Shown piece by piece: positions 13,783 through 52,479 of a stretch of 64,000 bases of DNA; position 1 is the stretch's first letter, and each line of letters opens with the position of its first letter. The stretch spans positions 1,760,001 through 1,824,000 of the forward strand of contig OZ253496.1 of assembly GCA_965262115.1 (NCBI GenBank), given 5' to 3'. The notes beneath the pieces are model-generated. The model was not told the origin of the DNA. It searched no databases and was given only the letters and a program-made list of their open reading frames with translations. Made by a program: the position numbers and the translations under genes. This DNA is from Nitrospinales bacterium (GTDB lineage: Bacteria; Nitrospinota; Nitrospinia; Nitrospinales; VA-1).

Positions 13783-14225
13783 CGTTGTCTTTACCACCTG
13801 TATTCTCTTGCCGTAAAATTTAATACTAAATTTAAAATGACCATGACTATACCCTACAGGCGGTATATCCTTGGGATTCGGACACATTCCGCAAACAATT
13901 TTTCCAGCCTGTGTTTGATAATTTCTCCAATTCCATCCTATAAAACATCCCTGCCTCTTTAATCATCTTGCCCAGTATCACATCCTCTTAATCATCGATA
14001 ACAGGAATTGACACCCGGGATCATTCAGGGTTGAGCCGTTAGAGCATATAAAAATGAATAAACAGAAAGCGGGAGTTGAGTAGCATATTGTGGCAAGAAC
14101 TTCATAAAAAAATTCGCTGCTACCCAAAAAACAGAGAGCGTAATCATGAATTTAATGAATATATCCATTACCAATAATATGTAGTGGCTAAGATTTGATC
14201 TTCCCCTGTTTTAGTGGACAGTTAG

Positions 14226-15089
14226 TTAAGAGGCATAGGCCTGTTTCTCGAATTCGGCAGGGCTGAGATAGCCGAGATATGAGTGACGGCGTTGCCGATT
14301 ATAAAACACTTCGATATATTCAAAAATATCCTTCTTTGCTTGCTGACGGGTTTTGTAGTTCCGGTTATGAATGAGTTCCACTTTGAGAGTATGGAAAAAA
14401 CTCTCCGCCACGGCGTTATCCCAGCAATCGCCCTTCCGGCTCATACTGCACTCTATCCCATGAACATTGAGCAAGGCTTGAAAATCGTTGCAGGCATATT
14501 GAACCCCCCGGTCAGAATGGTGAATCAATCCCGGTTTCATGCCGCCGTTCTTCATTGCCATATTTAAAGCTCTCATTACCAACCAACGGGTTATCCAACG
14601 ATCCATGGCCCAACCAATAACTTTACGGTGGAATAAATCCAGCGTCACCGCAAGGTATAACCAGCCCTCTTGAGTCGGGATATAGGTGATATCCGAAACC
14701 CAGCATTGACCGGGCTCAGCAACATTAAACCGCCGTTGCAGTTTGTTTTTTGCCACCGGGTGATTATGTTTGGAATCGGTTGTCACCCTGAACTTTCTTT
14801 TGTGCTTGGCAACGATTCCATGCTCGCGCATAAGACGGGCAATACGATGCCTGCCAATGGCATATCCCTTGTCTTTCAAGTCCTCATGAATTCTGGGACT
14901 GCCATAAGTCTGGCGACTCTTCTTATAAACGGTTTTGATCTCATCAACCCATCGCTGCTTCTCACGGCTCCTCAGGCTCTCGGGGCGGCTCAGCCAGGCA
15001 TAGAACCCACTTCGTCCCACTTCCAGAACCCGGCACATCGGGCTTACCGGAAATGCTTCTCGATGATCCCGTATAAACCGATATCTCAT
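14226..15089 (-). CDS. IS3 OrfB DDE transposase
   Basis: MRYRFI.., [31 protein letters not shown]. Confidence 0.93.
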
Positions 15090-15125
15090 TGGGAACCCTT
15101 CGAGTACCCCTTGTATGTTGTTCAT

Positions 15126-15342
15126 AAGGGGAATTTGTAGTAGTTGTACCTGTGAGCCCTGTGGGAAGCCGGTTTTGTGTTTTCCACAAGGCTCACAGGG
15201 TTTGATTCAGGGCACAATAGATCGTTTACCCCTTGGGCTTTTAAGCCCGTCCCGAAGCGCAGATCGTTGTGTCCTATTTTGATTAACCCGAACAGTTGCC
15301 TGGGCCACTGAGCCCGCATCGGCAAGGCTGGGAGACCAAATT
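15126..15342 (+). ncRNA. Predicted bridge RNA (5' hairpin, target-binding loop, donor-binding loop)
   Basis: 5' stem 15149-15199; target loop closed by GGGCACAAT/GTTGTGTCC with LTG TTACCCCT (15226-15233) and RTG CCCGAAG (15251-15257); LDG ACAGTTGC (15292-15299), RDG GCAAG (15322-15326); transcript ends approximate. Confidence 0.85.
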
Positions 15343-16293
15343 ATGAATCAGAAACCCCATTTTATTGGCATCGATATTTCTAAACTCCATCTGGATGTTG
15401 CTGACAGCATGACTCAAGAAACCTGGCAAACCGCTAACAATGAAGAAGGGATTGCTGGTTTGGTCGAGAGTTTATCCGCCTTAAATCCTCCATTGATCGT
15501 TTTGGAAGCCACAGGCGGCTTAGAGATCCCGTTGGCTTCGGCCCTGGTTGCGGGTCGACTGCCAGTAGCCGTGGTCAACCCACGGCAAGTTCGTGATTTT
15601 GCCAAAGCCACCGGGAAACTGGCAAAAACCGATGTCATTGATTCTCTTGTGCTGGCCCATTTTGCCAGGGCCGTACGTCCTGAGGTCAGGAAAATCAAAG
15701 ACGAAGAATCTCTGGAACTCTCAGCTCTAGTGACACGCCGTCGCCAGTTGATCGAGATGCTGACCAAAGAAAAAACCCGTCTAAAACAAGCTCCAAAATG
15801 GATATGTAAAGACATTAAGGAGCATATCGAATCTCTTAAAAAACGCTTGCGAAAAATCGATGGCGACCTTTCCAGAACCATCAAAAACAGTTCTGCCTGG
15901 CGTGAGCACGACCAGATCATACAAAGTGTTCCCGGTGCCGGTCCCGTTCTGGCTGTCAACCTCTTGGCCGGGGTTCCGGAACTTGGAGTTCTTAATCAGA
16001 AGCAAATCGCCGCCCTCATCGGTCTCGCTCCCCTCAATCGGGACAGCGGAAAGTTCCGGGGCCGCCGGTGTATCTGGGGCGGCCGCGCCAATGTGCGTGC
16101 CGCTTTATACATGGCCGCCGTCACTGCCATGCAGCATAATCCCGTGATTCGTACCTTTTACACACGCCTCATCGAAAAGGGCAAACCCTTTAAAGTTGCC
16201 ATTACCGCATGCATGAGAAAGTTATTAACGATCATCAATACCATGATCAAAACAAAAACACTCTGGAATGAAAATCTCATTGCCAGCACTTGA
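15343..16293 (+). CDS. IS110 DEDD recombinase/transposase
   Basis: GIDISK, VLEATG, KTDVID (DEDD); VPGAG, GLAP..RDSGK (catalytic Ser region), GG..VRAALY. Confidence 0.96.
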   Translation: MNQKPHFIGIDISKLHLDVADSMTQETWQTANNEEGIAGLVESLSALNPPLIVLEATGGLEIPLASALVAGRLPVAVVNPRQVRDFAKATGKLAKTDVIDSLVLAHFARAVRPEVRKIKDEESLELSALVTRRRQLIEMLTKEKTRLKQAPKWICKDIKEHIESLKKRLRKIDGDLSRTIKNSSAWREHDQIIQSVPGAGPVLAVNLLAGVPELGVLNQKQIAALIGLAPLNRDSGKFRGRRCIWGGRANVRAALYMAAVTAMQHNPVIRTFYTRLIEKGKPFKVAITACMRKLLTIINTMIKTKTLWNENLIAST

Positions 16294-16344
16294 CATTTAA
16301 CACAGTTGCTTCGGGGCATGAAAGCCAATGAAGAGGACATCACA

Positions 16345-16619
16345 AAGATAACTGTCGCCTTTTTTAATATGTCCCGCTCCATACGAAGGCGAGCGTTTTC
16401 TCGCCGCAACTGCTGCAACTCATCTCCCGGCTTAAGCTGTCCTTTGCCGGGAAACGCATTCCCCTGATCCTCCTCATACTCCTGTTTCCAGCGACCCAGA
16501 AGGGCAGAACGGATTCCCAGATCCCGGGACACCCGGGCAATGCTATCGCCTACTTCAATAACCAATCGAACCGCTTCTAACTTGAATTCTTTACTGAAAC
16601 TCCTGCGTTTGGTTCCCAT
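16345..16619 (-). pseudogene. IS3 OrfA (HTH), 3' end split by the insertion
   Basis: FSKEFKLEAV..LRRENARLRMERDILKKA; A6G frameshift motif at 16359-16365. Confidence 0.9.
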
Positions 16620-16684
16620 AAAAACACCTCCAAAAGTGTATTATCCACACTTTTCGATGTGTCCACCAATTCAGGGGAAGATCA

Positions 16685-51273: not shown

Positions 51274-51294
51274 TACCCCTTGTATGTTGTTCAT

Positions 51295-51511
51295 AAGGGG
51301 AATTTGTAGTAGTTGTACCTGTGAGCCCTGTGGGAAGCCGGTTTTGTGTTTTCCACAAGGCTCACAGGGTTTGATTCAGGGCACAATAGATCGTTTACCC
51401 CTTGGGCTTTTAAGCCCGTCCCGAAGCGCAGATCGTTGTGTCCTATTTTGATTAACCCGAACAGTTGCCTGGGCCACTGAGCCCGCATCGGCAAGGCTGG
51501 GAGACCAAATT
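51295..51511 (+). ncRNA. Predicted bridge RNA, copy 2
   Basis: Same guides as copy 1 (LTG 51395-51402, RTG 51420-51426, LDG 51461-51468, RDG 51491-51495). Confidence 0.85.
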
Positions 51512-52462
51512 ATGAATCAGAAACCCCATTTTATTGGCATCGATATTTCTAAACTCCATCTGGATGTTGCTGACAGCATGACTCAAGAAACCTGGCAAAC
51601 CGCTAACAATGAAGAAGGGATTGCTGGTTTGGTCGAGAGTTTATCCGCCTTAAATCCTCCATTGATCGTTTTGGAAGCCACAGGCGGCTTAGAGATCCCG
51701 TTGGCTTCGGCCCTGGTTGCGGGTCGACTGCCAGTAGCCGTGGTCAACCCACGGCAAGTTCGTGATTTTGCCAAAGCCACCGGGAAACTGGCAAAAACCG
51801 ATGTCATTGATTCTCTTGTGCTGGCTCATTTTGCCAAGGCCATACGTCCTGAGGTCAGGAAAATCAAAGACGAAGAATCTCTTGAACTCTCAGCTCTAGT
51901 GACACGCCGTCGCCAGTTGATCGAGATGCTGACCAAAGAAAAAACCCGTCTAAAACAAGCTCCAAAATGGATATGTAAAGACATTAAGGAGCATATCGAA
52001 TCTCTTAAAAAACGCTTGCGAAAAATCGATGGCGACCTTTCCAGAACCATCAAAAACAGTTCTGCCTGGCGTGAGCACGACCAGATCATACAAAGTGTTC
52101 CCGGTGCCGGTCCCGTTCTGGCTGTCAACCTCTTGGCCGGGGTTCCGGAACTTGGAGTTCTTAATCAGAAGCAAATCGCCGCCCTCATCGGTCTCGCTCC
52201 CCTCAATCGGGACAGCGGAAAGTTCCGGGGCCGCCGGTGTATCTGGGGCGGTCGCGCCAATGTGCGTGCCGCTTTATACATGGCCGCCGTCACTGCCATG
52301 CAGCATAATCCCGTGATTCGTACCTTTTACACACGCCTCATCGAAAAGGGCAAACCCTTTAAAGTTGCCATTACCGCATGCATGAGAAAGTTATTAACGA
52401 TCATCAATACCATGATCAAAACAAAAACACTCTGGAATGAAAATCTCATTGCCAGCACTTGA
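51512..52462 (+). CDS. IS110 DEDD recombinase, copy 2
   Basis: 316 aa; HFAKAIRP versus HFARAVRP in copy 1. Confidence 0.96.
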   Translation: MNQKPHFIGIDISKLHLDVADSMTQETWQTANNEEGIAGLVESLSALNPPLIVLEATGGLEIPLASALVAGRLPVAVVNPRQVRDFAKATGKLAKTDVIDSLVLAHFAKAIRPEVRKIKDEESLELSALVTRRRQLIEMLTKEKTRLKQAPKWICKDIKEHIESLKKRLRKIDGDLSRTIKNSSAWREHDQIIQSVPGAGPVLAVNLLAGVPELGVLNQKQIAALIGLAPLNRDSGKFRGRRCIWGGRANVRAALYMAAVTAMQHNPVIRTFYTRLIEKGKPFKVAITACMRKLLTIINTMIKTKTLWNENLIAST

Positions 52463-52479
52463 CATTTAACACAGTTGCT

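Follow-up and report, generated by a model that had tools for sequence, protein, structure and literature searches.

A distant IS110-group element whose predicted bridge RNA matches a mobile hairpin repeat in a Nitrospinales genome

The RNA-guided mechanism of the IS110 family is proven for IS621 of Escherichia coli (PMC11208160, PMC11208158, PDB 8wt6), which the parts of these papers available to us describe as having a recombinase with DEDD RuvC residues and a Tnp serine, a CT core, a left-end bridge RNA with target and donor guides in the order LTG/RTG/LDG/RDG, a discontiguous RDG, handshake bases, a junction sigma-70 promoter and a palindromic-repeat target. That target is ATCAGGCCTAC, and the targeting of REP repeats by IS621 is the archetype of such behavior (PMC11208160); the same source gives predicted bridge RNAs for 85.7% of IS110-group elements and already reports longer RTGs in other orthologues, and in the available portion of a 2026 preprint guides are assigned to 32,190 bridge RNAs, their total guide length being 12-40. 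ISCro4/IS622 (10.1101/2025.05.14.653916; PDB 9t56) is described with an extended RTG and a 14-nt target. Two further IS110-family elements also land in repeats, ISPpu9 in REP sequences (PMC12288879) and ISPpu10 in a repeated intergenic sequence bearing a stem-loop, which there forms a 5' extension of the target (10.64898/2026.03.19.712850).

Here we describe an IS110-group element of a Nitrospinales bacterium (assembly GCA_965262115.1), found in a window of 64,000 nucleotides, by which we mean the whole stretch of DNA analysed (contig OZ253496.1, positions 1,760,001 to 1,824,000); its features are collected in Table 1. We consider it very likely that a predicted bridge RNA in the left end guides the DEDD/serine recombinase, joining the ends ACAGTTG-CT-TGTAT to TACCC-CT-TCGGG, a site within the hairpin of a dispersed repeat of 39-41 nt. 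The element is a new, distant member of the known RNA-guided IS110 family, and the mechanism itself is not new. All of the IS621 features listed above recur in it, bridge RNA and junction promoter as predictions from sequence, as do the extended RTG and the architecture of ISCro4/IS622, its best solved relative (E 2.4e-33). IS621 differs in being a distant protein (E 1.5e-30), in its register of 7+CT+2 as against 5+CT+5 by covariation here, and in its target, which is another sequence and lies in the E. coli REP rather than in a mobile mini-element. ISCro4/IS622 differs in its longer target, two outer left positions being without covariation here, and ISPpu10 in the placement of the stem-loop, since here the core lies inside the hairpin.

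The recombinase scores above cut-off for both PF01548 and PF02371 and reaches 226.8 bits for NF033542 (NCBIfam; cut-off 140); ISCro4 and IS621 are its only PDB relatives, and among named records the nearest, at 65-73% identity, come from Nitrospinaceae. An earlier note on this DNA had named a 316-aa recombinase with DEDD and Ser intact, which the NF033542 score and the alignment of the five residues with IS621 and ISCro4 bear out, and sequence inspection found the motifs, CT cores and ORF that it listed all in place. Its count of two copies holds for the window and fails for the genome, which has 23 at full length; the second copy in the window is flanked on the left by IS3 orfB and on the right, past the mini-element, by unrelated DNA. 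Every decidable feature of the IS110 group is present. The layout of IS1111, with its guide RNA in a long right end, is absent, the right end extending only 17 nt past the stop codon and the guides lying in the left end, whose 233 nt show the two-loop layout of a bridge RNA. IS1111 elements are also marked by sub-terminal inverted repeats of 7-17 bp, shorter than the 25-nt minimum of the repeat search made here.

TACCC precedes the CT at 15110-15111, and ACAGTTG precedes the CT at 16309-16310, with TCGGGG after it. Seven IS3 copies of the genome hold the same site unfilled, with a single CT, and contigs from 4/8 sequencing runs contain the empty-site joint 15109>16309; the boundaries of the element are thus fixed independently of the guide reading, and insertion is scarless at a short core common to target and donor. 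On the IS621 model, we read the two CTs as target core and donor core rather than as a target duplication.

Table 1. Features of the IS110-group element and its surroundings (window coordinates)
Feature	Position	Strand	Remarks
IS3-family element with terminal inverted repeats	14196..16684	-	orfA 16158-16619, orfB 14226-15125
Left target arm TACCC	15105..15109	+	also first five bases of the 41-nt mini-element
IS110-group element, core to core	15110..16310	+	1201 nt; bounded by empty sites
Left CT core	15110..15111	+	left-target/right-donor junction
TATGTT, predicted -10 box	15113..15118	+	joined ends alone bring it behind the right-end -35 box (spacer 17 nt)
5' hairpin of predicted bridge RNA	about 15149..15200	+	from fold; kept in close relatives
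Target-binding loop module	15209..15275	+	outer stem, LTG, inner hairpin, RTG, handshake bases
LTG TTTACCCCT	15225-15233	+	
Target-loop inner hairpin	15235-15248	+	
RTG CCCGAAG	15251-15257	+	
Target-loop handshake bases CG	15258-15259	+	
Donor-binding loop module	15287..15333	+	LDG, hairpin, RDG, handshake bases
LDG ACAGTTGC	15292-15299	+	
Donor-loop hairpin	15302-15315	+	
RDG CAT-CG-GCAAG	15317-15326	+	discontiguous, one G-T wobble
Donor-loop handshake bases GC	15327-15328	+	
IS110 recombinase, 316 aa	15343..16293	+	D11, E55, D97, D100, S235 (aligned with IS621 D11, E60, D102, D105, S241)
TTGACA, predicted -35 box	16289..16294	+	overlaps stop codon
Left donor arm ACAGTTG plus right CT core	16302..16310	+	
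Right target arm TCGGG and rest of mini-element	16311..16344	+	ends in ATCACA
Second IS110 copy in the window	51279..52479	+	99.6% identical, ORF intact

The region 15126-15342 folds at -82.8 kcal/mol (z -3.53; 0/200 shuffles as good) and 15110-15342 at z -3.12, and the former fold contains the 5' hairpin, target-loop stem and inner hairpin that the earlier note had proposed. The promoter pattern TTGACA-17-TATGTT arises solely across the joined ends and recurs in 106/107 homologs, among which only its last T is free of the anchors used in the analysis. An end-to-end joint occurs neither in the assembly nor in the contigs of 8 runs, although contigs drop rare forms; one run, guessed to be RNA, covers just part of the IS110 ORF and says nothing either way on expression. 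A promoter scan of the inserted form returned 1 site (minus strand, inside the ORF) against 1.0 expected, which we do not count in favor of an antisense RNA here.

The pairing of guides with targets was followed through homologs, namely the best 80 of 149 genome-contig loci and the best 80 of 388 metagenome loci. Guides were placed by a profile of the RNA scaffold with the flanks unused, this alignment replacing a regular-expression scaffold that had recovered just 55/160 loci; 114/160 loci were usable (ungapped guides, CT core guides), and the other 46, with guide gaps or non-CT core guides, were left out. Identity between LTG and left flank at positions -7 to -1 was 0.13, 0.33, 0.69, 0.82, 0.89, 0.91 and 0.96 over 52 distinct LTGs (shuffled controls 0.23, 0.33, 0.27, 0.28, 0.38, 0.31 and 0.86), and between RTG and right flank at +1 to +7 it was 0.90, 0.88, 0.90, 0.84, 0.91, 0.17 and 0.24 over 50 distinct RTGs (shuffled 0.13-0.32, and 0.27-0.32 at +1 to +5). 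At -5 to -1 and +1 to +5, 0/5000 permutations matched the observed value at each position except -1 (2/5000). When each protein cluster (at 90, 75 or 65% identity) was represented by a single locus, the agreement was 0.83-0.92 (0.30-0.34 shuffled), and the covariation spans 11 clusters at 65% identity; of the 76 loci for which both flanks were present, 53 had no more than one mismatch over the ten positions and 5 had at least five. Because the signal lies at -5 to -1 and +1 to +5, with no covariation at -7/-6 or +6/+7 among the homolog guides, the target register of the clade, as read from covariation, is 5+CT+5. We met no statement of this register in the parts of the bridge-RNA literature available to us; the Durrant, Perry and COMPASS supplements may already list the element, its clade or its register.

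These results answer the check on guide and target that the earlier note had called for, strongly and over 50-52 distinct guides, and covariation supports its reading of an RNA-guided recombinase with target and donor specificities of its own. Of the seven LTG bases that it placed outside the core, five covary and the remaining two do not. For these outer positions, -7 and -6, a guide role was rejected, there being no signal in register, with wobble, or at the filled sites of this genome, where the outer bases TT stand at 4/11 filled as against 5/25 other sites, without enrichment (p 0.41). Shifted by one base, the outer LTG gave 0.37 vs 0.26 (p 0.015; with wobble 0.005; among 18 tests), at most a weak hint of a bulge. 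The base after the LTG was likewise rejected as a guide position, since it tracks target +1 in the variant described below (T to G) but is equal in only 18/75 homolog pairs.

The donor side follows the same pattern. The LDG equals the donor arm in 113/114 loci, placed by an independent -35 box anchor and including four changed donor types; the RDG agrees with the right donor arm by inspection, that arm varying too little to be tested by covariation. In 70/70 distinct cases the first handshake base of the donor loop is able to pair with LTG/target -1, and it is U in all 6 cases with A at -1, an A:U switch that derives from only about two lineages and agrees with the prediction of the handshake model as given in the available part of PMC11208158; pairing with non-cognate DNA holds in 70/70 and 94/95 cases. 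Four RNA stems have changes on both sides across 117 rows (up to 48/110 rows) of an alignment built by a sequence profile seeded on scaffold matches. It might be supposed that the matches resembling guides are accidental or stem from captured flank DNA and that the protein alone selects the site, the matches being short (5+2+5) and the element known here from sequence alone; against this, ten positions covary over the distinct guides and the 11 protein clusters, donor and handshake positions covary as well, and the mechanism is proven for IS621, and we judge such an explanation extremely improbable.

Agreement between guide and site is looser at +1 in relatives, one locus (L103) having a guide for A, yet a T site, and copies in G032 with a G guide preceding C, G, T and T. 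At seven homolog loci (L028, L029, L090, L093, L098, L046, L075) the flanks disagree with the element's own guides; these were possibly moved in trans by the RNA of a sister element, or have an extended end. The left-end 5' hairpin matches DNA without an adjoining IS110 match in related genomes (L168 in G013, L187 in G007, L193 and L194), so its origin may lie in a repeat or terminator of the host. The guide of relative G021 was not recovered.

A side result concerns the Rfam family sX15 (RF02234), which matches the minus strand at 15196-15352 with 35.4 bits, below the gathering threshold of 55; the genome holds 19 such sub-threshold matches, each of them antisense to an IS110 left end. At the original plasmid locus of Xanthomonas (L216:1879-2037) the strand opposite sX15 matches the bridge-RNA profile (E 1.7e-7) and leads into an ORF start, MNGIGID, that resembles an IS110 N-terminus; tblastn of the plasmid locus gave no longer IS110 match. 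The coordinates of asX7 span the target-loop module. According to the available part of PMC3300014, sX15 and asX7 belong, as an antisense pair, to the RNAs confirmed by northern blotting, and ten homologs occur in Stenotrophomonas maltophilia. On the sequence of this one locus, sX15 would be the reverse complement of a bridge-like RNA and may be its antisense regulator, and a bridge-like RNA with its antisense was, to judge from the same locus, probably detected in 2011 and not recognised as such at the time. Literature searches and the text available from one 2026 preprint yielded no link of sX15 or asX7 to IS110.

Within the Nitrospinales genome, the 23 full-length copies (there are fragments besides) comprise 15 with an intact ORF, 6 with a common 10-bp frameshift deletion and 2 variants, 87% identical and also frameshifted; tblastn of the genome gave no second IS110 family. 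The left junctions number 26, of which 22 end in TACCC; three of the others are off by a single base, and the fourth is an internal duplication. On the right, 23 of the 26 junctions begin with TCGGGGC, 2 with GCGGGGC and 1 has a base missing, and all 26 run into the hairpin repeat. The copies thus lie in TACCC-CT-(T/G)CGGG, and the mismatched sites by which the earlier note would have abandoned its reading did not turn up. There are 139 empty 12-mer sites, with A at +1 in 42, C in 30, G in 39 and T in 28. Main-type copies, whose RTG has A at the corresponding position, are followed by T in 23/24 cases, as against 28/139 empty sites with T; the 24th junction, with its missing base, is ambiguous and was excluded from the allele count. 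When related right arms were collapsed to 11, 7, 5 or 4 groups, P(all T) ranged from 3e-6 to 0.0099 under a conservative prior. The 87%-identical variant has the RTG CCCGCAG, with C at that guide base, and is located before GCGGG; because its two copies have 227 nt of right flank in common and are frameshifted, they were counted as one event. Since TACCC is the mini-element's own end, reading by the guide and repeat-borne movement look alike at the left junctions of this genome, and the strongest LTG evidence comes from the homologs.

Copy number overstates the number of insertions. The SNP haplotypes of the copies are mosaic, and among 14 complete IS3 copies the 3-bp target duplication is kept in just 2, with flank triplets recurring at other copies, which indicates recombination between copies or assembly mis-joins at repeats; shuffling of copies after insertion by inter-copy recombination is likely. 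Most of the 23 copies could then have arisen passively, by recombination or gene conversion or by riding IS3 or the mini-element, with few bridge-catalysed insertions. Such an origin would fit the mosaic haplotypes and the scarce IS3 duplications, the deletion common to six copies, and identical right arms beside different left flanks, but the copies retain 18 distinct left 40-mers, 19 distinct right 60-mers, 11 right-arm groups at edit distance <=2 and the 15 intact ORFs, and relatives show the same targeting at their own sites. We regard it as a serious possibility, if the less probable one. Two observations stand beside this: the dead variant and its 227-nt flank are duplicated between two mini-element copies (C1:1834459-1835865 and 1931070-1932476), which suggests that mini-element repeats act as recombination points; and at C1:2144617-2145980 a partial left end of ~163 nt is followed by a full element starting from an internal CT, as would be expected if recombination had acted on a half match at the left junction, or after plain tandem duplication.

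The target repeat is itself a mobile entity. It measures 39-41 nt, has the form TACCC-N5-GGGCA...ATCAC, and occurs in 278 places, vs 3 in the reversed genome. Its hairpin stem covaries (position 6 with 10), and position 16 covaries with the last base (T:A, C:G, A:T), which resembles the guide/cleavage-site pairing of Y1 systems. IS3 relatives of other genomes lack the repeat at this position, and its presence here is therefore an exact, duplication-free insertion of 41 nt; it also nests within itself and in tandem. Hence the "host micro-repeat" of the earlier note is right in naming a repeat as the target and undersells this insertion in IS3, for which "mobile mini-element" is a better name than "host repeat". 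Cyanobacterial small dispersed repeats, as Elhai et al. reportedly set out in 2008, are likewise short, hairpin-bearing, high-copy, nesting and duplication-free. REP/REPIN sequences, as far as the available part of PMC3116915 describes them, share with the mini-element a very short, hairpin-bearing form, high copy number, nesting in one another and the lack of a target duplication; a difference is that the genome (94% complete) has no PF01797 match to a Y1/RAYT transposase. With the tblastn result above, no candidate mover of the mini-element emerged.

The mini-element and the IS110 copy lie at the orfA/orfB junction of the IS3 element, giving a nesting of three layers, IS110 in a 41-nt mini-element in IS3. 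The mini-element is present in every complete IS3 copy, where a -1 frameshift would now meet a stop; no pristine IS3 copy or close helper was found, though the copies are ~99% identical. In 3/7 empty IS3 copies (C1:411501, 603932, 1658404) and in 0 filled copies, the right target arm has T in place of G (TCGTGG). This may be an escape of IS3 targets from the IS110, a reading that we do not adopt, the numbers being too small and the copies probably of common descent.

The CT core spans the last stem base and the first loop base of the repeat hairpin. With all 26 right junctions entering the repeat, and with the precedent of ISPpu10 (10.64898/2026.03.19.712850, in the part available), the hairpin could be a second, protein-read requirement added to real guide pairing. 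However, 130/139 empty 12-mers lie in the repeat anyway, so that the pattern would follow from sequence alone and this genome gives no means of telling the two apart, and many homolog target 12-mers have, by eye, no palindrome; we think this addition to the guide reading rather unlikely.

Under the guide reading, the element would leave by excision or copying, as a circle closed across the CT core, and the joined ends would place TTGACA 17 nt before TATGTT and start the bridge RNA, a step whose pattern is present in the sequence and whose transcription is taken over from IS621. As covariation shows, the LTG reads five bases to the left of the core and the RTG five to the right; the LDG reads the seven-base left donor arm and the RDG, discontiguously, the right one. 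Composite RuvC/Ser active sites would exchange strands at CT, presumably assisted by handshake pairing of the target-loop C to the donor G at -1 and of the donor-loop G to the target C at -1, leaving the observed scarless insertion with one CT per end. Circle formation, RNA expression and strand exchange at CT are here modelled on IS621 as described in the available parts of PMC11208160, PMC13626964 and 10.64898/2026.08.31.748434. The repeat offers 139 empty 12-mers in four alleles, of which the main lineage uses the T allele.

The element leaves the known mechanism unchanged. It adds a distant, apparently recently active predicted bridge recombinase for which target, donor and handshake bases have been decoded, and it illustrates how a guide can come to recognise the constant portion of a high-copy repeat. 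The 5+CT+5 register over about 50 natural guides amounts to a design rule for the clade, a 12-nt address in which two outer left bases are probably free. In close relatives all four bases occur at the RTG position that reads the variable loop base, the other target-guide bases being nearly constant. It is conceivable, and we advance it only tentatively as an idea that may well prove wrong, that the clade represents a naturally occurring variant whose 5+CT+5 address is short and symmetric, and that in this bacterial lineage it parasitises a mobile 40-nt hairpin element, with one guide base deciding which of the four loop alleles falls to which sister IS lineage. If true, this would be niche partitioning at the level of the guide, on a target that itself moves.
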